Shown here: piece after piece, positions 22,443 to 51,240 of the stretch
Position numbering within the stretch: the first letter of the stretch is position 1
Layout of the letters: each line of letters begins with the position of its first letter
Origin: an uncultured Acidobacteriaceae bacterium
GTDB taxonomy: Bacteria; Acidobacteriota; Terriglobia; Bryobacterales; Bryobacteraceae
Length of the DNA stretch: 64,000 nt
NCBI GenBank assembly: GCA_963730795.1
Contig: CAVSTJ010000002.1
Location: forward strand, 17,007 to 81,006
Direction: 5' to 3'
Notes under the pieces: model-generated
The model's database searches: none
What the model saw: only the letters and a program-made list of their open reading frames with translations
Told to the model about the DNA's origin: nothing
Program-made: the position numbers and the translations under genes

Positions 22443-23210
22443 TTAATGAGCCGAGAAGCCGCCGTCAAGCACCAGCGTCTGGCCAGTCATCCAGCGGCCC
22501 GCATCGGAGATGAGGTACGCAGCCGCGCACGCCACGTCCCAGGTGGTGCCGAGTCCCAAAGGGTGTTGGGCCACGATGCCCGCGAACTGCTCCTCGCTGA
22601 GGGATGTTCGAATCTGGTCAGTCATCTCGGACTGCACCATACCCGGAGCGATGCAGTTCACTCTGATGCCCTCCCGCGCTAACTCGATTGCGAGACTCCT
22701 GGTCAGCCCGATCAGGGCAGCTTTCGATGCAGCGTACGCCGACGTGCCGGGCGAGCCGACAATCGCACTGACAGAACTGACGAAGACAACGCTGCTGCTG
22801 GGTGCGCAGCATCTCTTCTGCCGAAAGCCCTTGGCAAGAATCACCGCACTATCGAAGTTCACCCGAAAGGTCTCATGCAGAACCTCGGGTGACAATCCGC
22901 GAAGCCCCACGGTCTTCCGAATGCCGGCTGCGTGAACCAGACCATCGAACGGGCCATAGAGATCTGCCAAGGACTTGATCCATGCGGGAATAGCGTCGAG
23001 ATCCGCTAAGTCGAACGGCTCGGTCGCGTGTGCACCGTCTGTCATTCGCACGAGCGTCGCTTTGAGCTGCTCAGCCCTCCGGCCGCTCACAACAACGCGG
23101 CACCCAAGTTCACTCAGCACGACTGCTGTCTCACGTCCGATACCGGACGAGCCGCCCGTCACCAATACGGTGCGGCCGGTGAGGTCAAGTGGCTTTCGTC
23201 GTGGAGTCAT
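22443..23210 (-). CDS. SDR family oxidoreductase (FabG-like ketoreductase)
   Basis: TGRTVLVTGGSSGIGRE (TGxxxGxG), NCIAPG and YAASKAA (YxxxK). Confidence 0.9.
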   Translation of the reverse strand: MTPRRKPLDLTGRTVLVTGGSSGIGRETAVVLSELGCRVVVSGRRAEQLKATLVRMTDGAHATEPFDLADLDAIPAWIKSLADLYGPFDGLVHAAGIRKTVGLRGLSPEVLHETFRVNFDSAVILAKGFRQKRCCAPSSSVVFVSSVSAIVGSPGTSAYAASKAALIGLTRSLAIELAREGIRVNCIAPGMVQSEMTDQIRTSLSEEQFAGIVAQHPLGLGTTWDVACAAAYLISDAGRWMTGQTLVLDGGFSAH

Positions 23211-23271
23211 AAGTCGTTAGCTTGTCACTGGTATACTACGTTGTCTAAACGAGACGAACTACCACTGAAGC

Positions 23272-24696
23272 ATGCTTTCAGATACTCCGCAAAGACATGA
23301 GCCACTGAAATCCTTTCCGCTCAGCCCGGTCGAAAGTATGTTCTGGCGGCTTGAAGAGGGTTCGCGGGGCATCTTCCGCGTGATCCTGCTATTTCGGGTC
23401 ACGGGCTGCGTTGAGGCAAAGCTCCTACTCATCGCCCTTCGTGAGGTTCAGCGGCACCACCCGAAGCTGCGAGCTGTGGTTGCCGAGGATGAGCATGGGC
23501 GGCTTCAGTACGAGGTTAGTGACGCGAGCCCACCGATTGCGTTTGAGATACGAGACTACGACGAGGAGGAGTCGCCTTGGCGCGAAGAAACGCGGCGGCT
23601 GCTCGAGCTTGAATTCCCAGTACGTGGACCATTCGCGGCCGTGACCGTCTTCCGCAATCGGTCACAGAGCCAATCTGATCTCATCCTCGCAGTGCATCAT
23701 GCGATTGCAGACGGTTTATCGGCCATCATGCTCATAGACGATCTCCTGACGGAGTATGCAAATGCCGAACAGAATCTGCAATTGCCACCGCGTCCGGTTC
23801 TTCCTGCATTCACAGCAGCAAACGCGAAAACCTCCCGTAGATGGCGTGACCGCGGCTGGTTATTCCGAAGGTTCTTGCGGATCCAGCGCGAGGAAAAGCG
23901 TTCACGCCCGACTCCGCTGCCCGAGTCGGCTGGCATTACTCCGCAATCGCAATGGGTGCATTGGATATTTTCTCGCGCGGATACTTCGAGGTTCGTTCGG
24001 CGCTGCCGGATCGAGAAAACATCCGTAAATGGGGCGATGGTGGCCGCGGTATGTTGTGGCCTTATGGATTGCCTGCCAGTAGAAGAGGCTTTATTTAAAT
24101 GCCAGTTCCCGCTCAATCTTCGCGAAGCGCTCGTCGGGGCGGAAGGACCGGTCACGGACCGTGATCTTGGCTGCTTCGTCAGCGTGATGAACGAGCTCTT
24201 CGAAGTACGCAAGAATCTCGATTTCTGGCATTTCGCAAGATCTGTGCAAGGAAAAGTTCAGGCCTTTGTACAACACGAAGGACCTTCCTTCTACTACAAC
24301 CTGATGTCGCTGCTGGAGCGCCGCCTCTTCGTAAGTGGGTTGCGGAGACTGCCAGGCTCTAATACCCGGGTAACGCTACTCGCCACGAGCTACGGTTTGC
24401 TGAACGTGCGTGATACCTATGGGAGCCTTCGACCCCGCGGTTGTACGCTCATGTTCAAGAACGACGCTGTTGGGCCGTGGCTTGTGATGGAAGGACTGGT
24501 GATGGGACAACAACTGAACATCGGCTTCGGGGGAGACGGTCTTGAACCGTCCTTCTGGGAGCGGCTTCAGTTGGCTGTCCGCAAACATCTCGATATCGCC
24601 TGTTCGGAGAAAGCTGGACGGATGCTCTCACCCGATGGCACGACAGATCAAAACGAAGCCGGCCCCCAGCGGATGAGCGTGGCTGCCCACGAATAG
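23272..24696 (+). CDS. stand-alone condensation-domain / PapA5-type acyltransferase
   Basis: HHxxxDG motif in LILAVHHAIADGLSAIMLIDDL. At 474 aa it is the size of a single C domain, and no A or PCP domain is attached. Confidence 0.7.
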   Translation: MLSDTPQRHEPLKSFPLSPVESMFWRLEEGSRGIFRVILLFRVTGCVEAKLLLIALREVQRHHPKLRAVVAEDEHGRLQYEVSDASPPIAFEIRDYDEEESPWREETRRLLELEFPVRGPFAAVTVFRNRSQSQSDLILAVHHAIADGLSAIMLIDDLLTEYANAEQNLQLPPRPVLPAFTAANAKTSRRWRDRGWLFRRFLRIQREEKRSRPTPLPESAGITPQSQWVHWIFSRADTSRFVRRCRIEKTSVNGAMVAAVCCGLMDCLPVEEALFKCQFPLNLREALVGAEGPVTDRDLGCFVSVMNELFEVRKNLDFWHFARSVQGKVQAFVQHEGPSFYYNLMSLLERRLFVSGLRRLPGSNTRVTLLATSYGLLNVRDTYGSLRPRGCTLMFKNDAVGPWLVMEGLVMGQQLNIGFGGDGLEPSFWERLQLAVRKHLDIACSEKAGRMLSPDGTTDQNEAGPQRMSVAAHE

Positions 24697-25670
24697 CCAA
24701 CGCCGAACCCGACTAACATGACAAGCGCTCCAGGCTTAAGCTGCCCCTGAGTCTCGGCGTGCTCCAAGGCCATTGGGATTGACGAGGATACGGTATTACC
24801 GACGTACTCCATTGCAAAGACGAATTTTTCCTCGGGGATATGCAACTTTCGCCGCAGGTGGTCGAGCATGAAACGATTTGCCTGATGAAACACAAACAGG
24901 TCCACCTGTTCCATGCTGATGCCAGTCTTGTTGAGCAGTTTTGTTATTGCATCCGGCACCATACGCAAAGTGAAGTTGAAGATTTCTGCACCATTCATGT
25001 ACAGGTCATTTACGGTCCGTGCGTTGCCGCTTTCGTCTGATACCAGCTCCGCCTCAGCGACAATCGATCGACGCATGCCACCGGTGGGAACTATCAGATT
25101 CCCGGCACCAGCGCCGTCCGTGCCGTAGACAAACGGACCGATTAAGGATTCCTGCTCCCGTCCGACCACTAACGTAGCGGCCGCCCCGTCGCCGAACAGC
25201 GTGCGCACACTCTTGTCGGCCGGATTCAGCAGTTTGCTATAGGTGTCTGAGGTGATCAGGATAATTGTCGTCGCCTGCCCGCTGTCTATCAGGGCTTTCG
25301 CCAATCCAAGTCCATACACGTATCCTGAACACCCGAGATTGAAGTCGAGGGCCCCACAAGAAATTGGCAACCCAAGGCGGTGCTGCAGAACACAGGCGGT
25401 TGTTGGGAGGATGTAGTCCGGAGTCTGCGTGCAGCAGAGAAGATAATCGATGCTCGAACGCTCGATACCCGTGTCCTCAGCCAACTTTTTCACCGCACGC
25501 ACTGCAAGATCCGAGGCGCATTCATCGGGGGCAGCGATGCGCCTGGTTCGAATGCCCGTTTTTGCGTAGATTTTGTCGGCCGACCATCCTTCGTACTGGG
25601 AAGCCAACTGCTCGTTGTCGAGAACCGTCTCCGGAAGCGTTGTTCGAATGGCCGCGAGAAAAGCTTTCAT
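24648..25670 (-). CDS. 3-oxoacyl-ACP synthase III (FabH-like KAS III)
   Basis: Cys-His-Asn triad contexts GCSGYVYGL, FVFHQANRFM and YVGNTVSSSIP. GGAG lies 10 nt upstream of the ATG. Confidence 0.9.
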   Translation of the reverse strand: MKAFLAAIRTTLPETVLDNEQLASQYEGWSADKIYAKTGIRTRRIAAPDECASDLAVRAVKKLAEDTGIERSSIDYLLCCTQTPDYILPTTACVLQHRLGLPISCGALDFNLGCSGYVYGLGLAKALIDSGQATTIILITSDTYSKLLNPADKSVRTLFGDGAAATLVVGREQESLIGPFVYGTDGAGAGNLIVPTGGMRRSIVAEAELVSDESGNARTVNDLYMNGAEIFNFTLRMVPDAITKLLNKTGISMEQVDLFVFHQANRFMLDHLRRKLHIPEEKFVFAMEYVGNTVSSSIPMALEHAETQGQLKPGALVMLVGFGVGYSWAATLIRWGPASF

Positions 25671-25722: not shown

Positions 25723-25956
25723 TCAAGCGGCTAATCGGTCACCGAGCAAACCAAGGAGATCTGAGACTGTCTTTGATTTGGCGATTCTGTCGCCCGAGAC
25801 GGCCACTCCAGTTTTCTCGTCTGCAAGAGCAATGAACAAGACAGCGGCCATTGAATCCCAGCCTTCTATTTCCGTCAACCGTTTGTGTTCATTCAGGCTG
25901 CCGCTAGGCAATTCCATTTGAACCTCCAGCTCTCGTAAAAACTCACCTTTCGTCAC
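25723..25956 (-). CDS. acyl carrier protein
   Basis: LTEIEGWDSMAAVLFIALAD carries the phosphopantetheine Ser. I placed the start at GTG 25956 (GGAG upstream, no overlap with the sulfotransferase gene). The track ORF extends to 26007. Confidence 0.7.
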   Translation of the reverse strand: MTKGEFLRELEVQMELPSGSLNEHKRLTEIEGWDSMAAVLFIALADEKTGVAVSGDRIAKSKTVSDLLGLLGDRLAA

Positions 25957-25979: not shown

Positions 25980-26651
25980 TTATCTTGGCATGGACATGGC
26001 ATCGCAATTGCTCTCAAAGGCCGCAGAACGGTTCCGGTAGAGTGAGGGATCAATCACGCCCATCATGGCGTCGGTATCCAGCCGAAGATCAAGGAATCGG
26101 CTAATTTCGGAGACCGTCTGTCCGGGCTGCCCCAAAACGTTATCGTAGTCCAGATAAAGAATCTCGAAATTGCTTTTCCTCTCCATCCAACTGTATAGCT
26201 TTTGAAGCTGCTCATCGAACGACCCCGCCAACTGTTCTGGGCTAAGAGAGCTTTGTTCTTGCCGTCTGCGAAGCATTACCTTTTGGGACGCGATTACCTC
26301 GTTGAGGTTCCGCCTCATGAAAATGACCTTATACATCTGATCCGCGGGTAAGGCATAGAGCAATACATAGATGACCTTTACGGCCTTCCCAAGAGCATGA
26401 GGCAGCCACGAGGCGTCCTTGTCCATCCGCTTGACGGCCTCGAACTCGTAGTAGCCACGCGGATTATCTTCGTCTGCCTTCCTGAATCCGTCAGTGAGTA
26501 CAGGGATCCCGCCGCTTTCGAGCATGCGCATCATCATGGATGTTCCGGATCTGGGAAGACCTGAAACAACGGTTATGAAATTATTTTGCCCTGTGTCCAA
26601 TACATTCTCCTCGAAGTACATCTGCAAAACTTGTCCCGGTATCCACGGCAT
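25980..26651 (-). CDS. PAPS-dependent sulfotransferase family protein
   Basis: 5'-PSB loop FITVVSGLPRSGTSMMMRML. At 223 aa it fits the size of a Sulfotransfer_3-type enzyme. Confidence 0.8.
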   Translation of the reverse strand: MPWIPGQVLQMYFEENVLDTGQNNFITVVSGLPRSGTSMMMRMLESGGIPVLTDGFRKADEDNPRGYYEFEAVKRMDKDASWLPHALGKAVKVIYVLLYALPADQMYKVIFMRRNLNEVIASQKVMLRRRQEQSSLSPEQLAGSFDEQLQKLYSWMERKSNFEILYLDYDNVLGQPGQTVSEISRFLDLRLDTDAMMGVIDPSLYRNRSAAFESNCDAMSMPR

Positions 26652-26652
26652 C

Positions 26653-27928
26653 TCACATCCGTGCCGCGTTCGCTACACTCTGCTGAATTATCTCCACGGC
26701 ACTTAGGACTCCGCTCTCCTGACCTATGCGCCTGCCAAGCTCAGCAGCGCGGCCGCGCATCTCCTTATTCGAAGTTGCCTGAACCGCTTCGGTCAAGGAA
26801 TTCTCGGTCAATTGTTTGGCAGGAATCGGACGTGGACCAGCGCCAAGATCATATACTCGACTTGCCCAGAAAGGTTGGTCCGCAAACACGGGCACAACGG
26901 CGGCAGGCAACCCGGCGCGTAATGCCGCTCCCGTTACGCCGGCTCCCCCATGATGAACCGCTGCACAGACACGGGAGAAAAGCCAGGCGTGCGGCACCGA
27001 GTTCAAACTGATAACGTCATCACTAAGCCTTCCCGTGGATAGTCCGCTCCCGCCTGCCAGAATTACTCCGCGCTTATGTGCACGTTCGAGAGCTCGAACC
27101 ACCAACCGGGTAGATACTTCGGGCTGCGGAAAAGGTGTACTGCCGAAACCGACGAAGACCGGGGGTGGACCGGATTCGAGAAAATCGACCAATTCTGCCG
27201 GCGGTACCCAATCTGAACCATCGTTCAAGAACCAATAACCGGTAACATGAATCCACTCATTCCAGTCAGGTGGTCGCGGTACAACCGCAGCGCTATAGGC
27301 GTCGAGGATAGGAAGGCGCCTCCGGTCCAAGACCTTAAAGGGTTCCATCAGCGGCAAAGGATGCAACCCGAGTACAGTTGTGCGTGCCGCATTTGTGTTC
27401 CGCCGAAGCATGCTCCACATCACCGTCCGGAACACGGCATGTTGGAACGCAGTCCACTCTCCTCTCAAGAGTGGTTGCTACATTCTTTTTTCCAGCCCAA
27501 TCATATTGCGTCCGCGCGAACGGGCTGGTCTGAACCCGTATCAAAGGGACATTGAGCCGTTCGGCAATGTGAACGCCTAAAAGAATACCCATTCCCGAGA
27601 CGACGATCGCTTCCACGTCGCTGCAATCGCGCCAATACGTAGCCATTCCCTCTTCGATAAGGGATCCGGCAAGGCGCACAAAACCTTTCAGAAAACCCGC
27701 GGCGGTGGTTCGGCCGCGGACCCACTCGCGTCCCGCATCGGTGTTCGCCATGTCGAGCGGTCTGCCGCCAATTGAAAGGTGATGGAGTCCGTACGGCTGA
27801 ACGAGATCCTCAAAGCCACCGAGCGTGACGATCCGCACCCGGTGACCCGCGTCCCGCAGACCAATGCACAGGGCGATGTAGGGTTGAACATCGCCCCTGG
27901 AGCCGATAGCTAAGACATCGATACGCAT
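26653..27928 (-). pseudogene. GT1 (GT28-N / sterol-glucosyltransferase-like UDP-glycosyltransferase), frame-disrupted
   Basis: The N-terminal half (MRIDVLAIGSRGDVQPYIALCIGLRDAGHRV...) is in ORF 27335..27928. The C-terminal half (HVTGYWF...VFVGFGS...HHGGAGVTGAALRAGLPAAVVPVFADQPFW) is in ORF 26653..27468. The frames switch near 27455-27480. The total span is 1 mod 3. Confidence 0.75.
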
Positions 27929-27946: not shown

Positions 27947-30113
27947 CTACGGCTGGCTTCCCGTACAGAACTCACTCGAAGTTACCTGTTGGGGAAATTG
28001 AGTGTAGAGCTGGAGCCGTCTTACGAGCTTGCTGTATAGAACATCGGCGTCGGTTGATTCGGGATCCTGGAGTGAAGGGGTACTGAGTTGCTTTACCGCT
28101 CCGTTGATCTGGCAGGCTGCCGCCTGCTGCTGTGCAGCGACAAGTTTCTGCGTAGCACCGGCCGAGCCGCTACTTGAGGTAAATCGTCCCCGCGCAGTCC
28201 AGACTTGTACTTGGTCCAGCAGTTGGCTGAACGTCACTGGGGGGGTGTTCATGGGGAAAGCCACTAAATTGGAAGGATCCGACGGTGCGCTGTTCTTTTT
28301 CTCTGCGGTGACATAGTACATGTATTTCTGCCCGGCTTGGGCCGTTGAGTCGAAGAAAATGGTGGTACTTACATCTGCGATATCGGTCCATGGACCCACG
28401 CACTGATCGGGGATCTTGTTCCCGTACTGCAGATTCCAGCCTTCAACACTCACGTTGTCTCGCACTAGGCAGAGACTTAGCTGGGCACGCCAGACGTGGT
28501 AGATCTTCGCGCCGCCCACGCTGTTCCATGAGAGAAGTGGGTTGCCATTTTTTGCCGGTTCCATCTCCAGACGACCCGGAGGGTCCGGTGCCGACGATCC
28601 TCGAGTATTGGCCTGAAAAATCATAAGCCCGTAGTAATCGTTCACCGAGCCAACAAACATACCGTGAGGGGTGTAAGCCATAGAACGGAAGCCGTAGTCG
28701 AACTTACCCCCCAATGGATCGCCCTTGTCTGTAAAGCCATTCAGAGTCATCGGACTGAAATACCACGCGTCCTGCGTGCGGTAAAGCTGTGCTCCCATGT
28801 TTGCCGCCAACAGTGGTCCGTAATTACTATCGAATCGCGCTGCTGTGCTCGCGTTGTATGTTCCGATATACAGATACCTGAATGGGTCGTCCATTTGCCA
28901 CGCATGATCGTTCAGAGTAAGACCGAACCCGGCCTCAAGGCCGCTGCTGGGATACTTCATCGCGGAAGAGCCGTTCGCAGCAGGCACGGATCGGGGCGCC
29001 CCGACCACCAAATCCCATGTGTCGTCAGGGTTGATTCGAACGATTTCCGTAAATGTTGCCGTCCCAACGTACAACTGCCCTCCGTATACATGCATGCTCA
29101 CGACAGACTTGCTCGCGGTAGCGGGACTCAATCCTCCACCAGCGGGCACCACGGTGATGAACTGGTACGGCGGTGATCCCTCGGCCTTCGTCTTGACTAC
29201 TGAGTAGCCGCCGACAGGATCAAAGCCGCCCAGGTATAACCATCCATTAAAAACCTCAAGCTCATAGTAAATGGGGTTTGCGTCGCCTGCTAGAAACCAT
29301 GAATTGTCGCCCTGCGACGGGTTGGCTGAGGCGATCAGCGAGCCCTGGCCGAAAGCTGGCCCGCACAGGGCAAACAGCTTTCCGTTGTAGGAAGTCGCCG
29401 CGCGAAAACTGGAATGATCGGAGTTGAACGGAAGATCTCCCAGGAACGTTCCAGGCGTTTGTGGTAAGGGCGAGAAGTTGATGCCGTCAGTGCTGCGTAG
29501 GATGCGGGGAGGCGGCAGCTTTGTTCGATCATAGATGATGGTGGTATTCACGCCGAACGCGTACAAAGCCTGCGTGCCATCTGGTTCCGTGTAAGTTGTG
29601 AAATCCCGAATAGCCATCTCGTACGGGAGTTTCTTTCCTGGGCGAGGCGGAAAAGCAGGAACACCGGCTCCGGGATTATCGAGCGCGAGAGGCGACTGAA
29701 ATACTCGTTGCCAGCCGCCGCTCTGAGTCCAGCGCCAGATCTCAGCCTGAAGGCTTAGATCCGCTGGGTCGGGAGCACACGAAAGATCCGGGTCAGTAGG
29801 TGGGTAGGGCAAATAGGTATTCGCCAGACTGGCGCTGACGTTGATACTTACGTATTGCCAGACCGCATCCCAACTGCTACAAAGCGACTGCCGGCTCGTA
29901 CCGACGTATAGCGCATTGTTCCACCAGATCATGGCTTGCGGCCAACTGTTGTTTCGGTCTCCGAAGCCGCGAGGTGCGGCCTCCATAAAAGTTACTTGCG
30001 GTTATGGGTCGTGTGCTGTTTTGCGCCCTTGTAAGGGACGCGCCGAGCGTGAGGGACACGGTTATCAGTCCAGCGGCGATGAGGGCTGCTCGTTGGTGCT
30101 GTGTTTTGTTCAT
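27947..30113 (-). pseudogene. secreted beta-propeller-like + FN3-like domain protein, signal peptide separated by a frameshift
   Basis: ORF 29877..30113 begins with a clean Sec signal (MNKTQHQRAALIAAGLITVSLTLGASLTRAQ). It abuts the 679-aa ORF 27947..29986 in the adjacent frame, with the switch near 29986-30005. An FN3-like segment (KIYHVWRA...YMYYVTAE) lies near the C-terminus. The span is 1 mod 3. Alternatively the 679-aa ORF is a stand-alone CDS. Confidence 0.55.
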
Positions 30114-30241: not shown

Positions 30242-31580
30242 TTACAATACCAGACTGGTTGAGGCCTCTTCCATCGCTCGGGGCGATTTCACGGCGAGGG
30301 ACTCCAGCAACTCAGCAGCGTGTGCCGGGCCCGGCGCCTGCGCCAATTTCTCAGCGATGCGTCGGGCATTCGCTCGAAAATGAGGCTCTTTGAGCAATCT
30401 CATAACAGCAGCACGGACGCGATCCGGTGTACACTTCCGGGGCGCAAGCCGAATTCCAACGCCGGCTTCTACAACGCGCTGAGCATTATCACTCTTTTCC
30501 CAGAATGTCGGGACCATCAATAGCGGCACACCAGCCTTCAGCGCAGCCATAACGGTGGCTGGCCCTCCGGTGGTTACCACGACGGCACAATGGGGCAGCA
30601 AATCCTCATGGCTGAGCCACCGTTCGACTCGCACGTTTGTTGGAAGAGGATCGAGGCCCAACGTTTTAGGATCCCTTGACTGGCCCGTTGTCAGGATTAC
30701 TTCGACCGCCTCATTCGCCAGTCCTGCTGCGGTCGCACGCAACAAGAACGGTTCTTGATACTGCGCCGTACCTTCTGTTGCGTGAACCCATGGCCGCGTC
30801 TTTGTAAGCTCGTTCAGCCACTGTGGCTGGGGTGCTCCCCCAGGTCTGGTCCATACGCATGGACCGACATAATGCACGTTCGACGGTTGATCGTGACGTT
30901 CGTAATCGAGTTCCGGAATGCTCGGGATGAGGTATAGCGGCAAGCGCCCGCTGAAGGCGTTGATCGAACCACCCATAGGCTTCAAACCGTATCGGGCCCT
31001 GATCCGATTGACTTGCTGGCGCATGCGGTAAGCGATTACGTCGATGGCTAACTCGGTTGCGCGCGCAAGCAGCCTCGTTCTGAAGTTCCGGGGCGGTGGG
31101 AGTCCGGGACCCCAGGGTGGCGCATCCGGTCCCGGAATCAGAGAGCCCATCATCGTCGACGAAAGGGCAACCGGTAAACCGGTAAGCTCCCAAATAACCA
31201 ATATGGAACCCCACATTGCAGGATCCGTAACCAAAGCCTCAGGTTGCCATTCCTCGAGGATCGGCTTCAGGTCTGTCGACCTGCTCCGGAATGGAGTCAG
31301 CGAGCATGTCGCGATAGGCCCGCATCGCAACGGAGAGAGTTTGACGTTTCGGTTGAGTAGCCGGTACTTTGGCTTCAAGCGCGTGGATACGCTCGTAGCG
31401 CTGGTCGTCAACATGAATGAATGGGAACAGCTTGAAGCCTTCTCCTTCGACCACTGGACGCGTGGATTCGTGGCTGTAGAAGGCAACATCGTGACCGCGA
31501 TCGCGCAGCGCGTGCGCGATGCTGATCTGGGGATATAGGTGTCCAACGAACGGCCAACACGTGACAAGGAAACGCGCCAT
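30242..31580 (-). pseudogene. GT1 MGT-family UDP-glycosyltransferase, frame-disrupted
   Basis: The N-terminus MARFLVTCWPFVGHLYPQISIAHALRDRGHDV is in ORF 31239..31580. The remainder (DLKPILEEWQPEALVTDPAMWG...TTGGPATVMAALKAGVPLLMVP) is in ORF 30242..31567. The switch is at about 31265-31285 (GTCGACAGACCTG). The span is 1 mod 3. Confidence 0.8.
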
Positions 31581-44600: not shown

Positions 44601-47600
44601 TCTGCTCCGCAACTCGATCGATGACGCCTTGCAAGGTCCTAATACCAGAAAGCCCTTCCATCAAGCCTTCTCCGGCATTGATACCCATCTCTGCGAAGGA
44701 CTGTTGGAAAGTTCCCAAAATTTCGACTCGTTTGATCGAGTCGATGCCTAAATCAGCCTCCAAGTCGAGTTGGAGATCCAGCATCTCCGGCGGGTAACCG
44801 GTCCTATCGCTCACAATGGTCAACAATCGCTTGGTGAGCTCGGTCGCGGGGTCCGTCTTGCCAGCCGACTTCTCAGATGGAAGTGGACCCGGAGTTGACT
44901 TAAGGGCGTGCGCCGCAACGGGCGCGGCAGAAACGGCGATTTCGGGTTGCGTGACAGGTTGAGGAATGAGGGGCTCGGCCGCTACAAAGTGTTGCAACGC
45001 GAAGAGATCGCGGGTCGGCTCAGCCTGAGGCCGAGGGGCGAGCTCGCGCAGCGCAGGCTCGAGGGTAGAGGGAGTTGACTGGCCCTCCAGGTAATTGATC
45101 ATGACGGTTTGTTGGACATCCAGAAAACGCGTCATTATCTGCTGGAAGTGCACCACCACGTGCGAGACGTTATCCAGGGAGCGAGTGACCGCAGGTGCTG
45201 GTTCGTGAGAACCATTGAGAACTACCGGTGAGGGTTGGACAGGAGGCGGCGAAGGCGGTGCTGCCCCCTGATGGGATGCTGCCGCAGAACCGTTAACCGG
45301 TGCGGGAATGGGCGGCACGCTCAGCCCCGCTGTACTCTCTTTCGGGTGTTTTGAAGAATCCATTTTTTGAGAACCGTTCGCGCGGCCGTTGCGGCCCGCT
45401 ACTTCCTTCAGCGGCTTGGCGCGCGCGCCATTGACCAACCATACGGATGGGGATAATTGCTTTTCGTTGTCCTGCCCGAGCGCGCCGAGATCCAGACGCC
45501 GGCTCGACCGGCCGCGATATAAACGATCGAGCTTTACGCTCACGCCTTGCGCAGCAAGCTGTGCAAGCAGGTGGAGGACTTGCGTTAGACCTGGCCTCCC
45601 GCTCTGGTTTGATGCCACTGCGAGCTTCGGACGGTCTCCCAGAATCTTGTCCACCAAGCCTGTTAGAACGCCACGCGGGCCCGCCTCTACAAAGATCCGC
45701 GCGCCTGCGTCATACATGGATTCGATTTCGCGCGCAAACTCTACTGGCCGGACCAGGTGTTCTAGAAGCCTCGTCACAATTGCATCGGGCTCTGTTGGAT
45801 AAGGCTCTGCCGTGGTATTCGAATAGACCGGAATAGTAGGTGTTCCTACCTTCACACCCGAAAGGAACTGAGCCAAGCCCTGCTGCGCGCCCGAAACGGT
45901 CGGCGAGTGGAAGGCACATGCCACAGGGATTCTGCGCACGGACGTGCCTCTCGCGCCAAACTGCTTGAGAGCTTCTTCCACGCCGGCCTTCGTCCCGGAT
46001 ATAACTATCTGGCGAGGGGCGTTCGCGTTCGCGATGCACACCCCCTGGATGCCATCAACAACAGCCGCCACTGTTACGGCATCAGCTTCGATCGCCGCCA
46101 TTACGCCCGGCTCTCCGCCAGCCGCGTCAACGATAAAGCGACCCCGTGCCTCCGAAATCGCAATGAGTGTTTCGGGACTAAACGCTCCGGCCGCAGCTAA
46201 GGCCACATACTCTCCGTAGCTGTGACCGGCAACCATGTCCGGTTTGAGACCTAATTCTCCTAGCAAGCCAGACATAGCCAGACCGGCGGCTCCTAGCGCT
46301 GGTTGTGCGATGTGCGTTTCTGTCAGCGCACATTGACGATTGTCTGCTTCCTGAGTGTTGAAACTGGGAGGCGGAAAAACGTAGGAACTCAACGGCTTTT
46401 CCAGCCGTTCGCCGAGGGCGGCGTTGGCGCTTTCAAATACTTCCTGCATCTCCGGGAAATAAATGAGAAGATCCTGCAACATGTGCGGGTATTGCGAACC
46501 TTGCCCGGGAAATAGGAATGCTACCTTTCCTTGTGAACCCAGCGGTTCTTGGGAAAAGTAAATCCCACGGGGATCGCTGATTCGGGCAACTTCGGACTGC
46601 ACGAGGCTCTTCCGGGCCGAAGCCAGTTTTTGCTTAAGATCATCGACCGAACTCGCGACGATCGCGAGCTGCAGGGCAGACTTGCGAGCTCCAGCAGATA
46701 ACTCTTCGGCCTGCTTCCACGCTGTGAAGGCCAGATCCCGCAAGATCGGCGCCGTCGGTACACGAAGTGCCTCATCCCAGGTCTCAACCGTTTGAAGTAG
46801 GGCCTGCCGGTTCTCGGCTCGCCACACGAAAAGCTCATCTGACCACTGCCGGGTCCGGGTTGGTTGAGCCGAAGCTGGCGTGCCCGTGTATTCCTCGACT
46901 ACCACGTGAAAATTCGTACCGCCGAAACCGAATGCGCTTACGCCCGCGCGGCGCGGATTCTGGGCAAGCCCGTTCAGCCAGGCTTGCGCTTCCGTATTAA
47001 CGAAGAACGGCGTCTCAGGAAAGCGCGCACGAGGATTCGGCTTCTCAACACCTAACGTCGGCGGCAGCACCTTATGGTGAAGTGCCAGCGCAGCCTTGAC
47101 CAGGCCAACGGCACCGGCACTGCATTTCGTATGCCCGACCATTGACTTGACAGAGCCGATGGCGCAGCTCTGAAGGGGAGCTCGAGCGTCGGAGAACACT
47201 TGTGTGAGCGCCTGGACTTCCGCGCCATCCCCCGCCACGGTACCCGTTCCGTGAGCTTCAATCAGTCCCACCGTCGCGGGTGACAGTCCAGCCTTGGCGT
47301 ACGCGCGATTCAGAGCGCGTGCCTGACCCTCAGGGCGGGGCGCCGTCAGCCCGCGGTCTTTTCCATCGCTTGAGCTTCCAGCGCCTTTGATGACTGCGTA
47401 GATGCGGTCGCCGTCCCGCTCTGCATCCGCCAATCGCTTGAACACCATCATTGCGATGCCTTCGCTGATGGCAATTCCATCTGCGCTCTCATCGAACGTG
47501 CGGCACCGGCCGCGAGGCGAGAGCGCGTGGGTTTTGCTGAAGCAAAGGTATGTGAACGGATTTTGCATGGTGTCGATTCCGCCCACAATCACCATGTCGC

Positions 47601-50340
47601 TCGTATGGCATTCCAGTTCTTTGAGCGCGAGCGATACCGCCGCCAGAGAGGAAGCGCAGGCAGCGTCAACCGTGAAGTTGCTGCCTCCCAGATCGAAGCG
47701 GTTTGCGACGCGTCCAGCCGAAACATTCGCTAATATTCCTGCGAATGAGTCTTCCGTCCACTCCGGGAGCCGCCCATCCAGGCGATCCACAATCTCGCTG
47801 GTACGGCCGCGGAATTCCGGCAGATCTTCAAGCACGGGCATAAAAGAGCGTGCGCCATACGCCAGCCCCAGGTCGGCAGCTCCTCCGCCAGCGCCGAGAA
47901 TAACCGAGGTCCGTTCCCGTGCAAATGGACGGTCCAGGTAACCGGCATCTTTCAGTGCCGCACGCACCACTTCGAGGGTGAGAAGCTGGACCGGCTCGAT
48001 CGAACGCAGGCTTGCAGGCGGCATCCCGTACTGAACTGGGTCAAAAGCAACGTCATCGATAAAGCCGCCCCATTTCGAATAGATCTTGTCTTTCGCTTTC
48101 GGGTCAGAGTCAAAGTACAGGTCCGAGTTCCATCGCTCTTTCGGAATCTCGCTGATTGCATCAACCTTGCAGAGGATGTTCTCCCAAAAGGTCTCAAGGT
48201 CGGGCGCTTTCGGCAAAATGCATGCCATGCCGACTATCGCCACATCGGAAGGCGCCTGGGCGGGACGTTGCGTTGGGACTTCAGGAAAGCGCTCACGCAA
48301 GCCTTCGAGCTTCTTCGAACCTTCTACAGCCACGTCGCGGTGCAGAGCCGCAATGGTACAAACCGAACCGCGGAGGGCAGCCACTTGGCCGATCATGTAC
48401 ATGCCCTGACTCACTTGTTCGGTCTTTTGGATTTCGACTAGCTTGGGCGCAGCAGGATCGGTGCCAAACCGGGGATGGCGCGTGACGCCTTTCGAGGCGA
48501 TTCTGAGACGGCCGAGATTGAGGTCCTCAAGAGCCATCCTCGTCTCTTCCGCTGAAGCGCCAGATTTCAACAAGCGCTTCTTCTCTTTCACGAACGCACT
48601 CAAGTAGGGCGTATCAACGCAGCGTGTGGCATGACCCGGGCCGGTTTCGAGCAGCACCGTGCGGCTGCATTTTTGAGCCTGTTCCTGAAAGGCTTCACGG
48701 ATAGCTCCGGAGGCTACGGCTTCTTGAGTGAATAGATAGGCGGTCCCGAGCAGGACACCAACACGAACTCCGCGTTCGGCTAAAGGCGCCGCGATCACTG
48801 AGACCATGGCCGCCGAGAGTGCATCGTGAATGCCGCCGGCGAATACAACATGGAAATCTTCGGGCGTCGCGTCCAGTGCGGGTGCATTCAGGAGCACATC
48901 GACCATCTGGTTCCACAACACGAAGCTGGCGCGTGGACCTACATGCCCTCCGCACTCACGACCTTCGAAAACGAAGCGGCGTGCTCCTTGCTGAACAAAC
49001 ATCTGTAACAAGCCCGGCGAGGGCACATGTAGGTAGCTGATGATTCCATTCGACTCGAGCGTACGTGCCTGGTCCGGTCTGCCGCCAGCAATCAGCGCAA
49101 AGGGCGGGCGGTACTTCCGGACCACTTCCATCTGTTCCTCGCGGAGCTCGGCTGGAACGAATCCGAGAATTCCGACGCCCCAGGGCAGATTTCGCAGACG
49201 GATCTGGGTTTCCGCCAGGAGTGCTTCCACCTCGGGTCCCCTCATCAGTGCCAGAGCCAAAAAAGGAAGCGCGCCTTCTTCAGCAACCCGGCCTGCGAAC
49301 TCCGGAACATCACTAACCCGCGTCATTGGACCTTGCAGGATCGGGTACCGTGTACCGTGCGAACGGGCCATTGCGGAGTTCTCATCCAAGGGCCGCAATC
49401 TCTCTGCGTTCTCGCAGTGTGTTCGGACCGCATCCCGCATTGCCTGCAACACACCAGCCACCGTCCGGAAGCGCTGGGCCAGAGATGCAGCGAACGCGGC
49501 ATCCTGACCGAGCATCAGAACCTTCTGCTCGGATTCCCACCCGGCGCGTTCCACGATTGCTTCACGCCATGATTCAAGAACTTCTTCCGCCTGACGATCA
49601 TCCACCGCTAAGCGCGTTTCGATCTCACCTAGCGCCTTTACAGCCGTGTGCCCGGGTCGGAAGTACATGCGGTAAGCTTCCCCGAGCTGCTCGCCCAGAC
49701 AGACGGTCTCGCTGCCATCCATGGAAGCGATCTTTGCTTTGATTGGTTCCGGCAGGCACGACTCCCGCGTCAGCGCTAACTGCGAGTCCAGCACGAGACC
49801 CGCTGCTCCGCCGACGACACAGGCGGCCGCCGTATGCAGTCCGATACCGCCCTGAACCCAGACCGGCAACTGAACCTCAGTTTTGAAGCGCTGCAGAAGA
49901 ACAAATGTGGTTTCGTTCGCTACCCGGCCTCCAGCCTCATGGCCCTTCGCTATTACTCCACTGAAGCCAAGCGCTGCCGCGATCTGAGCGTGTTCTAAAC
50001 ATCGCGCTTCGAGCAGTATGGAAACGCTCTTTTCACGGAGAGCTTGCGCTCCATGCCCCAGTTCTTTGGGGTCACTACAGGTGAAAACGACCGTCTTGAG
50101 ATTGCTGGGCAGCCTCGAACTCAAACGTGCAATGAGGCCTGGTGTAGCTCCACTGAGTTTTACGCCAAATCCCTGAGGAAGAACTTGATTCAACTTATCA
50201 ATGGCACGTACGGCCGCGTCTTCGTCGCGAACGTATTCAAAATCCAGGATGGCTAATCCTCCCGCTCGATGAGTTGCAATGGCTATCGAGGGCTGGAGAA
50301 GACCTGGAGTCAAGGTGGCGATCTGGAATGTATTTAACAT
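41635..50340 (-). CDS. type I PKS / PUFA-synthase-like megasynthase: NMO-like(ER')-ER-KS-AT-ACP-ACP-KR-DH
   Basis: Approximate domain positions follow. ER' is at 49440-50340 (KGHEAGGRV). The PfaD/FabK-type ER is at 48420-49370 (YPILQGPMTRVSD, EGRECGGHVG). KS is at 46888-48246 (DAACASS, Cys codon 47656-47658; EAHGTGT; GHTKCSAG). AT is at 45580-46520 (FLFPGQGSQY; GHSYGE, Ser codon 46219-46221; CAFHSP). Two ACPs carry LGIDSIKRVEILG (Ser codons 44737-44739 and 44422-44424). KR is at 42700-44100 (VLVTGGARGIGA; YAAAN). DH is at 41635-42480 (HRIDGRPVLP; LFHGPLLQG). Confidence 0.95.
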   Translation of the reverse strand: MLNTFQIATLTPGLLQPSIAIATHRAGGLAILDFEYVRDEDAAVRAIDKLNQVLPQGFGVKLSGATPGLIARLSSRLPSNLKTVVFTCSDPKELGHGAQALREKSVSILLEARCLEHAQIAAALGFSGVIAKGHEAGGRVANETTFVLLQRFKTEVQLPVWVQGGIGLHTAAACVVGGAAGLVLDSQLALTRESCLPEPIKAKIASMDGSETVCLGEQLGEAYRMYFRPGHTAVKALGEIETRLAVDDRQAEEVLESWREAIVERAGWESEQKVLMLGQDAAFAASLAQRFRTVAGVLQAMRDAVRTHCENAERLRPLDENSAMARSHGTRYPILQGPMTRVSDVPEFAGRVAEEGALPFLALALMRGPEVEALLAETQIRLRNLPWGVGILGFVPAELREEQMEVVRKYRPPFALIAGGRPDQARTLESNGIISYLHVPSPGLLQMFVQQGARRFVFEGRECGGHVGPRASFVLWNQMVDVLLNAPALDATPEDFHVVFAGGIHDALSAAMVSVIAAPLAERGVRVGVLLGTAYLFTQEAVASGAIREAFQEQAQKCSRTVLLETGPGHATRCVDTPYLSAFVKEKKRLLKSGASAEETRMALEDLNLGRLRIASKGVTRHPRFGTDPAAPKLVEIQKTEQVSQGMYMIGQVAALRGSVCTIAALHRDVAVEGSKKLEGLRERFPEVPTQRPAQAPSDVAIVGMACILPKAPDLETFWENILCKVDAISEIPKERWNSDLYFDSDPKAKDKIYSKWGGFIDDVAFDPVQYGMPPASLRSIEPVQLLTLEVVRAALKDAGYLDRPFARERTSVILGAGGGAADLGLAYGARSFMPVLEDLPEFRGRTSEIVDRLDGRLPEWTEDSFAGILANVSAGRVANRFDLGGSNFTVDAACASSLAAVSLALKELECHTSDMVIVGGIDTMQNPFTYLCFSKTHALSPRGRCRTFDESADGIAISEGIAMMVFKRLADAERDGDRIYAVIKGAGSSSDGKDRGLTAPRPEGQARALNRAYAKAGLSPATVGLIEAHGTGTVAGDGAEVQALTQVFSDARAPLQSCAIGSVKSMVGHTKCSAGAVGLVKAALALHHKVLPPTLGVEKPNPRARFPETPFFVNTEAQAWLNGLAQNPRRAGVSAFGFGGTNFHVVVEEYTGTPASAQPTRTRQWSDELFVWRAENRQALLQTVETWDEALRVPTAPILRDLAFTAWKQAEELSAGARKSALQLAIVASSVDDLKQKLASARKSLVQSEVARISDPRGIYFSQEPLGSQGKVAFLFPGQGSQYPHMLQDLLIYFPEMQEVFESANAALGERLEKPLSSYVFPPPSFNTQEADNRQCALTETHIAQPALGAAGLAMSGLLGELGLKPDMVAGHSYGEYVALAAAGAFSPETLIAISEARGRFIVDAAGGEPGVMAAIEADAVTVAAVVDGIQGVCIANANAPRQIVISGTKAGVEEALKQFGARGTSVRRIPVACAFHSPTVSGAQQGLAQFLSGVKVGTPTIPVYSNTTAEPYPTEPDAIVTRLLEHLVRPVEFAREIESMYDAGARIFVEAGPRGVLTGLVDKILGDRPKLAVASNQSGRPGLTQVLHLLAQLAAQGVSVKLDRLYRGRSSRRLDLGALGQDNEKQLSPSVWLVNGARAKPLKEVAGRNGRANGSQKMDSSKHPKESTAGLSVPPIPAPVNGSAAASHQGAAPPSPPPVQPSPVVLNGSHEPAPAVTRSLDNVSHVVVHFQQIMTRFLDVQQTVMINYLEGQSTPSTLEPALRELAPRPQAEPTRDLFALQHFVAAEPLIPQPVTQPEIAVSAAPVAAHALKSTPGPLPSEKSAGKTDPATELTKRLLTIVSDRTGYPPEMLDLQLDLEADLGIDSIKRVEILGTFQQSFAEMGINAGEGLMEGLSGIRTLQGVIDRVAEQIGAEAPTSVSSAEMSVPKAGAPSREQLTARLLATVSDRTGYPPEMLDVDADMEADLGIDSIKRVEILGNFQQALFELGQATHEGMIEQLAGMHTLRGIIDCVLQVAQKKPVSGDSEPATADKSDEHFRATAGVSTSNDHKRETANIGRFTLAAVERPLAGALQPVAKDRTVLITDDGRGIATALGEELHRRGHHVVTVAMGERVQERASGFYEADLGSPEAVNQLISLVNERQGAIGAIVHLYPLANRPSPRNLALEDSSQKLMVGTKSLFYLAKAAGKQLREAGQNKGASLIAATGMGGAFMTGLSPDSPVSYPDHGGIAGLTKTLAIEWPEVRIRVVDLNPEENGQDLADHLLGEMNVAEEGHTEIGYQGARRLCLDLNLTAPERKGKPALAIDSSSVVLVTGGARGIGARAAHRIAERYGSTIVLIGRTPMPEAQESAETSQLSSPKELKAALMESMRRGGDQVTPARVEQAYARLMSEREIRQNLKELRKLGGAVHYETVDVRDAEAFASVIDSIYERFGRLDGVIHAAGVIEDKLVQDKTVESFDRVFDTKVNSAFTLTRKLHSESLQFLVFFTSVAGRFGNRGQGDYAAANEVLNKLAVSLDRSWPGRVVAMNWGPWDSPGMVSEEVRRQFVERGVELIPPEVGLQMLEDELNFGHRGEAEVVIGGAGWSPVKQHAESFGDWPLLPRISSSGVNGTREFVCELDPVHDRYLDDHRIDGRPVLPLAVASELMAEVVAQNWPELQFTSIRDLQLLKGIVLDKEHGNIRIVSKSQSVSEPNKTSVAVELVSAEQPYRVHYRATVELAQGLPQTPPREPVLLSDGGAFRLTREDFYNQWLFHGPLLQGISRIESIGPSGITALLARSRPSDLVAGDPKRPWLIDPLMFDSALQLLVVWAREHWDMTALPSGFQSYSRFGEPSSGPVLCEMRIRPNTGSQTIHADIFFIDAATRRVFAVLDDMQGACSTALNRLARKSMTAAVGLGS
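44296..44859 (-). repeat. tandem ACP-domain duplication inside the 2901-aa synthase (315-nt period)
   Basis: Two copies of SDRTGYPPEMLD...EADLGIDSIKRVEILG..., with Ser codons exactly 315 nt apart. The nucleotide sequences are visibly similar but diverged. Confidence 0.85.
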
Positions 50341-50646
50341 CGCTTTATCTCGTTACTTACGCACCGGAACTAACGAGTGCATGAAGCTGGGTTAGTTAGT
50401 TATTGAAACACAGATCGTGGTGTTATGAAATACCTAAAAGATTGACTCAAATGTAACGGAGCTCAGGTTACACATATCGTCAATCGGATGGGAAGGAGCA
50501 GGCTAAGCTCCAAGCTTCTCTCTCGAGCAAATCGGAAGCTGCTGCTTCCGAAAGACACGTTTCGCGGCTTTTGTTGCGACGGGATTAAAGCGAAGTTAAG
50601 AATGTCCGGAGGCTAAACCGGGAAAGTTGACCACTGGATAGGAACG
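50341..50646 (-). promoter_or_regulatory. 306-nt AT-richer leader between the NusG-paralog gene and the PKS start, with stem-loops
   Basis: A perfect 7-bp stem CGGAAGC-N4-GCTTCCG at 50533-50550 is followed on the transcript strand by ATTTG. A second stem GGAGC-N7-GCTCC lies at 50483-50499. A candidate sigma70-like pair TTGAGT-N17-CATAAC (50450..50422, minus strand) is weak. Confidence 0.35.
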
Positions 50647-51240
50647 CTAAATGTTGCGATTCCCCGGCTCATGTTCCGCCAATCGTTCATTGTCCTGTAA
50701 CGAGACTCCACTAATAATGTTGGGAAGATTGCGGTCTTTCACTGGCCGCACACAAGTTCTGTCGACCTCTACTGAGACGGATCGCTGCAGCAGTGAAATC
50801 GATAAGACAAGTCGGTCGTGGCCTTTTTCACTAACCAACACGCCTTCGATACCGGTCAGGGGTCCGCGGTAGACGTACACTTGTTCGCCCGCTTTGAGAT
50901 ACGCCCAGGGTGTCACTTCGGAATTCGACGCGAGCAGATGACGAATGGCGGCAAGCTCTTCGTCCTCAATTGGGAGTAGCTTTTCACCGGCACGAACCAC
51001 ATCGAACACGCCCGGTGTGGTAAGCACGGCGAGCGTTTCTTCGGGGTCGACTCGGCAGAACAGATATCCCGGAAACAGGGCGGCATCCACCTTCCGCACG
51101 CGTCCCGGATAATGTCGGAGTTCTTTGTAGGTAGGCAGGAAAGTCTCAAACGACTTCCGCCGGAGAGCATCTTGAACTAGTATTTCGCTGCGCGTTCTTA
51201 CCTGGAGCGCCAGCCAAGGGCATGGAGAGTCGAACTGCAT
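50647..51240 (-). CDS. NusG-family specialised paralog (RfaH/LoaP/TaA/UpxY-like transcription antiterminator)
   Basis: NGN-domain start PWLALQVRTRSEILVQDALRRKSFETFLPTY...FPGYLFCRV. KOW-like GEQVYVYRGPLTGIEGVLV. It is 197 aa and sits at the head of a 26-kb co-directional array. Confidence 0.8.
   Translation of the reverse strand: MQFDSPCPWLALQVRTRSEILVQDALRRKSFETFLPTYKELRHYPGRVRKVDAALFPGYLFCRVDPEETLAVLTTPGVFDVVRAGEKLLPIEDEELAAIRHLLASNSEVTPWAYLKAGEQVYVYRGPLTGIEGVLVSEKGHDRLVLSISLLQRSVSVEVDRTCVRPVKDRNLPNIISGVSLQDNERLAEHEPGNRNI

Follow-up and report, generated by a model that had tools for sequence, protein, structure and literature searches.

Two Pfa-like polyketide synthases (PKSs), three glycosyltransferases, a sulfotransferase and a PapA-like acyltransferase lie together in a gene cluster of ~31 kb from an uncultured soil acidobacterium, and the question raised by this locus is what molecule such a set of enzymes would make. 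The cluster sits within a 64,000-nucleotide stretch of contig CAVSTJ010000002.1 (assembly GCA_963730795.1, positions 17,007 to 81,006), hereafter the window, to which all coordinates refer. Its gene content leads us to propose, with moderate confidence, that the operon directs synthesis of a decorated long-chain "secondary lipid" destined for the envelope, namely a sulfated, acylated glycolipid. A sulfated glycolipid had already been put forward in an earlier reading of this DNA (the original prediction) and is still the best reading, although the product itself remains a prediction and the cluster is not a one-off: it is a member of a large, widespread and uncharacterised family.

The array itself is real. 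ORF listing combined with Pfam and NCBIfam scans places a co-directional series of minus-strand genes from 51240 down to 24648 that encodes, in order, a NusG paralog, PKS1, PKS2, an acyl carrier protein (ACP), a phosphodiesterase (PDE), an alpha/beta hydrolase, a short-chain dehydrogenase/reductase (SDR), two GT1 glycosyltransferases, a propeller/FN3 protein, a third GT1, a sulfotransferase, a second ACP and FabH. A Condensation/PapA_C gene is convergent to the array, and beyond it lie an SDR and an Acyl_transf_3 gene. Nearly all domain calls of the original prediction were borne out by these scans, among them the GT1, sulfotransferase and PapA-like acyltransferase genes, which are present with intact catalytic motifs. 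A relative represented by loci L001 and L085 (Logan assembly; related loci are cited by number) carries all of the genes intact and in the same order, with ~80% DNA identity to the window and a PKS1 that is 84% identical (P0002). The individual features are as follows.

50647..51240, minus strand: NusG paralog of the UpxY family, a processive antiterminator (Pfam NusG, NF033644)
50341..50646, minus strand: intergenic leader between the NusG paralog and PKS1, 306 nt (L001 comparison, folding)
41635..50340, minus strand: PKS1, 2901 aa, a fused PfaD-PfaA-like iterative synthase with two enoylreductase domains (ER' and ER), ketosynthase (KS), acyltransferase (AT), two ACPs, ketoreductase (KR) and dehydratase (DH), in the order ER'-ER-KS-AT-ACP-ACP-KR-DH (Pfam, TIGR02813)
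36703..41638, minus strand: PKS2, KS-AT-DH-phosphopantetheinyl transferase (PPTase), frame broken at 37993 (Pfam, alignment)
36411..36713, minus strand: stand-alone ACP, 101 aa, serine in LGFESID (weak PP-binding match)
34805..36411, minus strand: PDE of the alkaline-phosphatase superfamily, PF01663, ~534 aa when intact (Pfam, alignment)
33924..34787, minus strand: alpha/beta hydrolase, 287 aa, candidate chain-release enzyme (Abhydrolase_1, E = 1.4e-32)
32989..33927, minus strand: classical SDR, probable ketoreductase (adh_short, E = 3e-51)
31589..32960, minus strand: GT1a, macrolide-type (EryCIII/UDPGT) glycosyltransferase (Pfam; insertion at 32456)
30245..31580, minus strand: GT1b glycosyltransferase (Pfam/NCBIfam; insertion at 31278)
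27947..30107, minus strand: propeller + FN3-like + helical-bundle protein, secreted, ~716 aa when intact (AlphaFold model)
26653..27928, minus strand: GT1c glycosyltransferase (Pfam; break near 27430-27490)
25980..26537, minus strand: sulfotransferase dependent on 3'-phosphoadenosine 5'-phosphosulfate (PAPS), ~185 aa (PF13469, PF00685)
25723..25956, minus strand: second stand-alone ACP, 77 aa, serine in GWDSM (Pfam scan, motif)
24648..25670, minus strand: FabH (KAS III) (NF006829, triad)
23272..24696, plus strand: stand-alone condensation-fold O-acyltransferase, PapA-like (Condensation + PapA_C)
22443..23210, minus strand: FabG-like SDR (family scans; copies in L085, L087 and L090)
21144..22352, plus strand: membrane acyltransferase-3 (Acyl_transf_3), OpgC/MdoC-like, 402 aa, cluster membership uncertain (family scans)
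19669..20823, minus strand: second secreted PD40 propeller protein, far cluster boundary (Pfam scan)
51523..52749, minus strand: PD40/TolB-like beta-propeller protein, secreted, 408 aa, conserved cluster neighbour (weak PD40 and TolB matches)
54197..54742, minus strand: adenosine 5'-phosphosulfate (APS) kinase, CysC (PF01583, E = 1.4e-58)

Both synthases have the domain orders claimed for them from the start, ER'-ER-KS-AT-ACP2-KR-DH in PKS1 and KS-AT-DH-PPTase in PKS2. Scanned singly, each of the two N-terminal ER domains of PKS1, which are of the nitronate monooxygenase (NMO)/flavin mononucleotide (FMN) type, lies above the Pfam cutoff; the protein scores 110 bits against the FabK model, and its ACPs carry the LGIDSIKRVEIL motif at residues 1864 and 1969. 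The tandem ACPs and FMN-type ER that the original prediction regarded as hallmarks are present, and PKS1 reaches 1360.6 bits against TIGR02813, the PfaA family model, where the cutoff is 1010.1. Catalytic motifs are found in its KS (Cys-His-His), AT (GHSYG), KR (YAAAN) and DH (HxxxGxxxxP, PS-DH type), so that PKS1 holds all activities of a reducing cycle: ER, KS, AT, two ACPs, KR and DH. The 8.7-kb gene aligns with its L001 orthologue at 84% identity with no frame break, and full-length homologues of 50-69% identity occur in Solibacter usitatus Ellin6076, Bryobacterales, Brocadia, Nitrospirota, Binatia and other lineages. PKS2, which in relatives is one intact gene of 1646-1647 aa, has the KS Cys-His-His triad, an AT GHSTG motif and a PPTase WxxKEAxxK motif. 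Pfam scanning detected a single KS in PKS2 and no second KS-like domain, and because the Cys-His-His triad is kept this KS is not a chain-length factor. The same scan places no KR, ER or ACP in PKS2; a free ACP of 101 aa follows it and is 88% identical to its L085 counterpart. In the pathway we propose, PKS1 would iterate to give a long, mostly saturated chain, and PKS2 with the free ACP would carry out the final extension or extensions, in which reduction is incomplete and an oxo or hydroxy group stays on the chain. The alpha/beta hydrolase may then release the chain, possibly aided by the PDE, with the SDR setting the hydroxyl.

The TIGR02813 score, the tandem ACPs and the FMN-type ER would equally suit an orthologue of the polyunsaturated fatty acid (PUFA) or heterocyst-glycolipid synthases that makes a known lipid class. 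We regard this as extremely improbable, since the cluster has no chain-length factor (the cysteine of the second KS is kept), no FabA-type dehydratase and no thioester reductase, and since no characterised homologue was found. With respect to the dehydratase, PUFA synthases form their cis double bonds by means of paired FabA-type dehydratase/isomerase domains, and Pfam identified only PS-DH and PKS_DH_N in PKS1 and PKS2. No thioester reductase of the HglB/HetM type (NAD_binding_4), which would release a fatty alcohol, is encoded by any cluster ORF; L089 encodes a 786-aa protein with NAD_binding_4. Literature searches by domain architecture, hglE-KS in Acidobacteria, sulfotransferase-PKS-glycolipid combinations and Solibacter PKSs returned no characterised homologue.

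Three cytoplasmic GT1 enzymes, assigned by NCBIfam to the small-molecule macrolide glycosyltransferase type, would attach the sugars. GT1a is intact in L085, where it has 459 aa, and GT1b is 88-97% identical to a 445-aa L085 gene. The third GT1 genes of L086, L087, L089 and L090 share 55-63% identity with GT1c; its identity to the corresponding L085 gene (L085:12295-13611) is only 36-43%, although L085 is otherwise 80-90% identical to the window. This pattern of identities suggests a glycosyltransferase swap, with the third GT1 replaced in the L085 lineage.

The sulfotransferase would in turn sulfate a chain hydroxyl or a sugar. It exceeds the cutoffs of PF13469 (45.3 against 27) and PF00685 (32.6 against 22) and retains both PAPS motifs (5'-PSB PRSGTS and 3'-PB RRNLNEVIAS); its true start is probably at 26537, giving ~185 aa in a family whose members typically have ~195 aa. 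Homologues number 4968, many of them on contigs shared with PKS1 or propeller homologues, and the nearest PDB matches (E<=1) are cytosolic SULTs. The gene for APS kinase, 3 kb further upstream than the NusG paralog, may supply PAPS to the enzyme; no APS kinase lies within 10 kb upstream of the L001 synthase, and the gene is not beside the cluster in the relatives examined. Sulfotransferase homologues are found inside the related clusters L089, L090, L037, L039 and L057. In L089 and L090 the gene comes after GT1-MFS_2. The Desulfobacterales loci L037, L039 and L057 have the same sulfotransferase family directly after the hydrolase and encode no glycosyltransferase, and because of these variants a chain hydroxyl is a possible acceptor; it may therefore be the alkyl chain, and not a sugar, that bears the sulfate.

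The Desulfobacterales arrangement also bears on a different role for the enzyme, in which the sulfate serves as a leaving group, by the chemistry of CurM and the olefin synthases (OLS): a beta-hydroxyacyl chain would be sulfated and hydrolase-driven decarboxylative elimination would yield a terminal alkene, leaving the product unsulfated. A beta-functionalised last unit is plausible given that PKS2 has neither KR nor ER. In the acidobacterial clusters, however, the sulfotransferase gene is placed distally, beyond the GT1 genes and, in relatives, also beyond MFS_2, and it encodes a free-standing protein of ~190 aa rather than part of an ACP-sulfotransferase-thioesterase tridomain. The PDB search at E<=1 recovered SULTs and no CurM/OLS sulfotransferase chain, and sulfatases in sister clusters suggest turnover of a stable sulfate ester. 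Taken together these points make an unsulfated alkene distinctly unlikely, and we favor a sulfate ester that is retained in the product. Sulfur-ester enzymes occur around the core of the family in three unrelated forms, the window-type sulfotransferase, Sulfotransfer_3 proteins and PF00884 sulfatases, which makes sulfur-ester chemistry a theme of the whole family and not of the window alone. The Sulfotransfer_3 proteins (~320 aa), unrelated to the window sulfotransferase, are present in one to three copies each and with no GT1 in L045 (Microcystis wesenbergii) and in L041 and L049 (Alphaproteobacteria). A recurring cassette of PF00884 sulfatase (440 aa), SnoaL_2, methyltransferase and MFS_2 is seen in L008 (L008:18052-19834), L053, L016, L059 and L055.

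For acylation, FabH, the second ACP and the FabG-like SDR could form a self-contained unit that provides a short 3-hydroxyacyl-ACP, from which the PapA-like enzyme would transfer the 3-hydroxyacyl group to a hydroxyl; the membrane acyltransferase-3 may also act. An ACP-FabH-SDR set accompanied by acyltransferase-3 or a condensation enzyme recurs in L085, L087, L088, L089 and L090. FabH scores 287.3 bits against NF006829 (cutoff 249) and has the Cys-His-Asn triad (LGCSG, FHQAN, VGNT). It shows a weak, sub-cutoff match to Chal_sti_synt_N; a DarB-type role in dialkylresorcinol formation was rejected, as the genuine KAS III model is passed and the DarB and StlD models are far below their cutoffs. 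The 77-aa ACP is paired with FabH in L085, L087, L088, L090 and L091, and the FabG-like SDR shares 74-88% identity with the copies adjacent to FabH in L085, L087 and L090. The PapA-like acyltransferase has the HHxxxDG motif (HHAIADG) and homologues in L085, L087, L088 and L089; its best PDB match is 8s6l, a phthiocerol dimycocerosyl transferase of the PapA5 type (E = 6e-11), and its score against the NCBIfam PapA5 model is 46.8 bits where the cutoff is 396. The acyltransferase-3 gene is intact in the window, and an intact copy, 51% identical, is located between the SDR and FabH in L090. In L085 (L085:17938-19291) this gene was called only as fragments of 100, 81, 57 and 49 aa.

The PDE and the propeller/FN3 protein, passed over in the original prediction, are the two most conserved among the unexplained partners. 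In the PDE the metal-binding and nucleophile positions D11, T50, D276, H277 and H434 are invariant across orthologues, and the protein has no signal peptide. Its PDB matches are distant and N-terminal only, to NPP and PhnA, and searches of the PDB and NCBIfam gave no functional assignment. The ORF at 34802-35122, previously listed as a separate gene, has no Pfam match alone and proves to be the PDE C-terminus once the frame breaks are mapped against the intact relative. The propeller/FN3 protein is called at 679 aa in the window and has no family match in Pfam or NCBIfam. The AlphaFold model (pLDDT 86.9) combines a beta-propeller with an FN3-like domain and a helical bundle, and Foldseek against the PDB returned generic propellers with TM <= 0.33 and no specific structural analogue. 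There are 778 homologues, and the family N-terminus has a signal-peptide-like consensus, which together with the model shows that the original description as a secreted propeller/FN3 protein was right. A 571-aa secreted protein of the Desulfobacterales was considered as a further homologue, but profile comparison gave only 36% probability and homology is not established.

Secreted propeller proteins also flank the array. The protein encoded at 51523-52749 has an N-terminus resembling a signal peptide and homologues inside or beside the related clusters L001, L005, L086, L087, L089 and L090; the PD40 protein at 19669-20823 is 90% identical to an L085 copy in the same position. With this conservation in relatives, the cluster probably includes both flanking PD40 genes. 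The propeller/FN3 and PD40 proteins would handle the lipid outside the cytoplasm, and it is the secreted propeller proteins, together with the MFS_2 transporter in relatives, that point to the envelope as the destination of the product.

A survey of the family with the PDE as anchor and one genome per species yielded 80 loci, and gene linkage was read from a tblastn matrix and ORF clustering. At PDE identities of at least 40%, PKS2 is found upstream in 44 of 52 loci, the ACP upstream of the PDE in 42/54 and the hydrolase downstream in 45 of 48; the propeller/FN3 gene follows downstream in 29/39, with the SDR in 30/46 and a GT1 in 13/39. Linkage collapses below 40% identity, where PKS2 accompanies 2 of 20, the ACP 1 of 22 and a GT1 1 of 14, and the hydrolase, SDR and propeller/FN3 genes none. 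The recurrent core is PKS1-PKS2-ACP-PDE-hydrolase, often with a propeller protein, across many phyla. Hosts include Acidobacteriota, Chloroflexota, Solirubrobacteraceae (Actinomycetota), Desulfobacterales, Microcystis, Chroococcus, Frigidibacter albus and anammox Planctomycetota (Brocadia), and at least two carriers are cultured, Solibacter usitatus Ellin6076 and Frigidibacter albus SP32. The former has a glycosylated variant with the order PKS1-PKS2-ACP-PDE-hydrolase-SDRx3-GT1-GT1-PD40-propeller-GT1-GT1-MFS_2-methyltransferase. The check for synteny with an already characterised cluster that accompanied the original prediction gave syntenic matches to uncharacterised clusters only. Locus L003 (Candidatus Brocadia, GCA_021646415.1) encodes a PKS1 homologue, a KS-less AT-PPTase, several B12-radical S-adenosylmethionine (SAM) enzymes, a flippase and two PDEs, a gene content that points to a lipid that is methylated or otherwise modified by radical SAM chemistry.

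A more far-reaching proposal is that the core, often with a secreted propeller/FN3 protein, defines an as yet undescribed class of bacterial envelope lipid made in a range of phyla (Acidobacteriota, Chloroflexota, Actinomycetota, Desulfobacterota, Cyanobacteria, Alphaproteobacteria and anammox Planctomycetota), that the PDE performs an unprecedented step and that sulfation is the characteristic modification of the family. Possibilities for the PDE step would be cutting the phosphopantetheine phosphodiester of the acyl-ACP, and so off-loading the chain, or installing or removing a phospho head group. As a whole we hold this proposal to be quite unlikely, and the narrower reading of the window as an operon for a sulfated, acylated glycolipid is the one we develop.

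Whether the copy in the window is functional depends on the nature of its frame breaks. The original prediction recognised three frame disruptions; protein-guided and DNA alignment to the intact relative L085/L001 reveals seven, the breaks in GT1b and the propeller gene being among those missed. Six are uncompensated +1 single-base insertions, at 37993 (PKS2), 35286 and 35141 (PDE), 32456 (GT1a), 31278 (GT1b) and 29985 (propeller N-terminus), the last of which separates the signal-peptide region from the propeller/FN3 protein. The seventh, in GT1c, is located approximately, near 27430-27490. The six mapped insertions are outside long homopolymers, and Pfam scans of the 19-kb left flank showed no obvious split domains. 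A contig from another dataset (L091; Logan ERR11523676, 1744 bp) is 99.14% identical to window positions 25271-27014, with 15 mismatches and no gaps, which indicates that a very close strain exists there; it spans the end of GT1c, the sulfotransferase, the ACP and the start of FabH, and ends short of the break sites.

The breaks are most likely assembly errors. A cluster copy that is decaying and non-functional, its tailoring half, which runs from the last part of PKS2 through GT1c, inactivated by frameshifts, is unlikely, and we keep this explanation because the clustering of the breaks is unexplained: all seven are confined to the 10.6 kb between 27.4 and 38.0 kb, and none is found in PKS1, the stretch from the sulfotransferase to PD40, the NusG paralog or the upstream PD40 gene. 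Uniformly distributed sequencing errors would not be expected to cluster in this way; a local assembly or polishing problem and recent decay are both possible. Decay is less easily reconciled with the uniformity of the six mapped breaks, all +1 insertions, and with alignments that contain no large deletions. The broken genes are also as conserved relative to the intact relative (81-97% amino acid identity over most segments) as the unbroken ones, many related metagenome-assembled genomes are nanopore assemblies, among them L004, which likewise has a split PKS2, and the independent contig is gap-free over its overlap, short as this falls of the break sites.

Expression of an operon of this length may itself be assisted. 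The NusG paralog at its head matches the Pfam NusG (NGN) model at E = 1e-15 and, among NCBIfam models, scores 104.8 with UpxY NF033644 (cutoff 100), 87.7 with RfaH and 70.9 with LoaP. By tblastn it is found, among loci L001-L084, only in the closest relative, L001. The leader downstream is 83% identical to that of L001 with long invariant blocks and folds better than shuffled sequence (z = -2.47). Rfam gave no match over the window at the gathering threshold and none over 50200-51650 at E<=5, nor was there any sign of ops, JUMPstart or another known recruitment element. A plausible function for the UpxY-type paralog would be to keep RNA polymerase elongating across the 26-kb operon.

The surroundings of the cluster raise a further possibility, that the lipid is a membrane anchor or primer for the polysaccharide of the adjacent locus at 654-19408, by analogy with RkpA and WcbR. 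A complete Wzx/Wzy-type locus does adjoin the cluster, in L003 the Brocadia core is interspersed with genes for Poly_export, a flippase and B12-radical SAM enzymes, and PKSs of the RkpA/WcbR type in capsule loci are discussed in PMC3908369. The adjacency, however, is kept neither in Solibacter usitatus nor in the 84% relative, whose cluster is followed instead by rhodanese and MR_MLE genes, and the GT1 enzymes are of the small-molecule (macrolide glycosyltransferase) type. We thus consider an anchor role very unlikely and retain the free-standing decorated lipid as the preferred product. The polysaccharide locus itself encodes a Polysacc_synt flippase, a methyltransferase, a class II aldolase, a Bac_transf priming transferase, GT4 and GT2 glycosyltransferases, a B12-radical SAM enzyme, Poly_export/SLBB, a Wzz-like protein of 744 aa, an arabinofuranosidase-like protein, Wzy and GDP-mannose 4,6-dehydratase. 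Large arabinofuranosidase-like proteins (ASD1_dom/Alpha-L-AF_C), one with CBM_4_9, are encoded at 12469-14649 and 56347-58386, both on the plus strand, and a TonB-type outer-membrane protein of 1182 aa (CarboxypepD_reg + OMP_b-brl_4) at 60175-63723. Such proteins are typical glycan-foraging equipment of acidobacteria. A 263-aa protein at 55179-55970 (minus strand) matches only positions 279-366 of 371 in the glutathionylspermidine-synthase preATP-grasp profile and may derive from a truncated or frame-broken gene outside the cluster.

Several considerations weigh against the proposed sulfated, acylated glycolipid. No product of the family is known, so the chain length, the functional groups, the sugars and the sulfation site given here are predictions. 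A recognisable thioesterase or reductase release domain is absent from the cluster, and the roles of the universally linked PDE and of the propeller/FN3 protein are left unexplained. The window contains no transporter gene, while relatives have an MFS_2 gene before the sulfotransferase. Lastly, the seven frame breaks, clustered within 10.6 kb, would mean if real that this copy is inactive.

If the proposed assignment is true, a sulfated, acylated glycolipid built by a Pfa-type synthase would represent new chemistry and would be a surface molecule with a bearing on how cells colonise soil, tolerate desiccation or maintain a barrier. Few soil bacteria are as abundant as the Acidobacteriota and, to our knowledge, almost no specialised lipids or natural products have been described from them. 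The window is a complete decorated example of a family that is present in dozens of the species-representative genomes surveyed, with hundreds of marker homologues in metagenomes, and since cultured hosts carry the cluster the question of its product is directly testable. The conserved PDE and propeller/FN3 protein point to biochemistry outside current models of PKS off-loading and lipid export.

In comparison with known systems, the gene set fits none of the characterised ones considered, as the original prediction had held for the two it named. PUFA synthases share the tandem ACPs and the FMN-dependent PfaD-type ER but differ in their KS-chain-length factor (CLF) pair (PfaC), in which the second KS has lost its active-site cysteine; no such pair is present here, the sole PKS2 KS keeping that cysteine. 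The Hgl synthases of Nostocales likewise use a PfaA-like synthase with tandem ACPs to make a long hydroxy/oxo alkyl chain that is glycosylated and deposited outside the cytoplasmic membrane, whereas the acidobacterial cluster has no KS-CLF-AT protein (HglC) and adds three macrolide-type GT1 enzymes, sulfation and acylation. No exporter of the DevBCA/HgdD type (ABC or HlyD) was found among the window ORFs scanned. The similarity to mycobacterial sulfolipid-1 (SL-1) biosynthesis (Stf0, Pks2, FadD23, PapA1/PapA2, MmpL8) noted in the original prediction holds for the shared logic of a PKS-derived acyl chain, a sugar, a sulfotransferase and a Pap condensation-fold acyltransferase, and breaks down in the components. 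The sulfotransferase matches Sulfotransfer_1/_3 only and not Stf0, the synthase is Pfa-type rather than mycocerosic (474 bits against a Pks2 model cutoff of 2400), the PapA5 model is far from its cutoff, and no AMP-binding (fatty acyl-AMP ligase, FAAL) or MMPL domain is present among the ORFs scanned from 19.6 to 53.9 kb. In addition, the GT1 enzymes would place sugars onto a lipid aglycone instead of acyl chains onto a sugar core, and there is no trehalose-specific enzyme.

Other pairings of a PKS with a sulfotransferase are more distant. The swf cluster of sponge symbionts comprises SwfA, a single KS-AT-DH-ER-KR-ACP module, the reductase-sulfotransferase SwfB and the radical SAM protein SwfC (PMC3908369), and resembles the present case as an orphan, widespread PKS/fatty acid synthase with a sulfotransferase, for which an alkyl sulfate has been predicted and never observed (PMC3908369). 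A match is ruled out by the different domain order, by the unfused sulfotransferase here and by the lack of GT1, phosphodiesterase and PPTase fusion in swf (PMC3908369). CurM and OLS likewise combine an alpha/beta-fold hydrolase with a PAPS-dependent sulfotransferase at the terminus of the PKS; here both enzymes are free-standing, and the sulfotransferase gene is separated by ~8 kb from that of the hydrolase and by 10 kb from that of PKS2. The phenolic-lipid ars system of Azotobacter (Type P) does not apply, as no type III PKS (ArsB/ArsC) is present. For the regulator, the resemblance to UpxY, RfaH and LoaP lies in a NusG paralog, above the UpxY cutoff, that stands first in a very long operon whose product is a surface molecule or secondary metabolite. 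The present paralog differs in that no known recruitment element was detected and in being confined to this lineage of the cluster family.

Pfa-like clusters have been catalogued since 2011 and only a handful of their secondary lipids identified (PMC3098273, PMC13291983), and a core of fused pfaDA with pfaBC-PPTase is listed there as an uncharacterised secondary lipid synthase (PMC13291983; PMC3098273). The Type R architecture described by Shulse and Allen for Solibacter, KS-MAT-CLF-ACP3-6-KR with a separate PPTase, does not fit the cluster as it is given in that account. In its passage on the pfaDA/pfaBC-PPTase arrangement, PMC13291983 draws a likeness to the uncharacterised Renibacterium salmoninarum secondary lipid synthase, which is Type M of Shulse and Allen 2011 (PMC3098273). 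As portrayed in those passages, Type M differs from the acidobacterial synthases, in which PKS2 has one active KS and no chain-length factor and PKS1 has two NMO-type ERs and a C-terminal DH; the PDE, hydrolase, propeller/FN3, GT1, sulfotransferase and FabH/PapA partners are not mentioned in the Type M and pfaDA passages of the two papers. Nevertheless the Type M, or fused pfaDA, kind is the closest one described, compared by its published architecture and not by sequence: on that account it shares an ER fused before a PfaA-like KS-AT-ACPn-KR, a second synthase with a terminal PPTase and a predicted long-chain fatty-acyl product.

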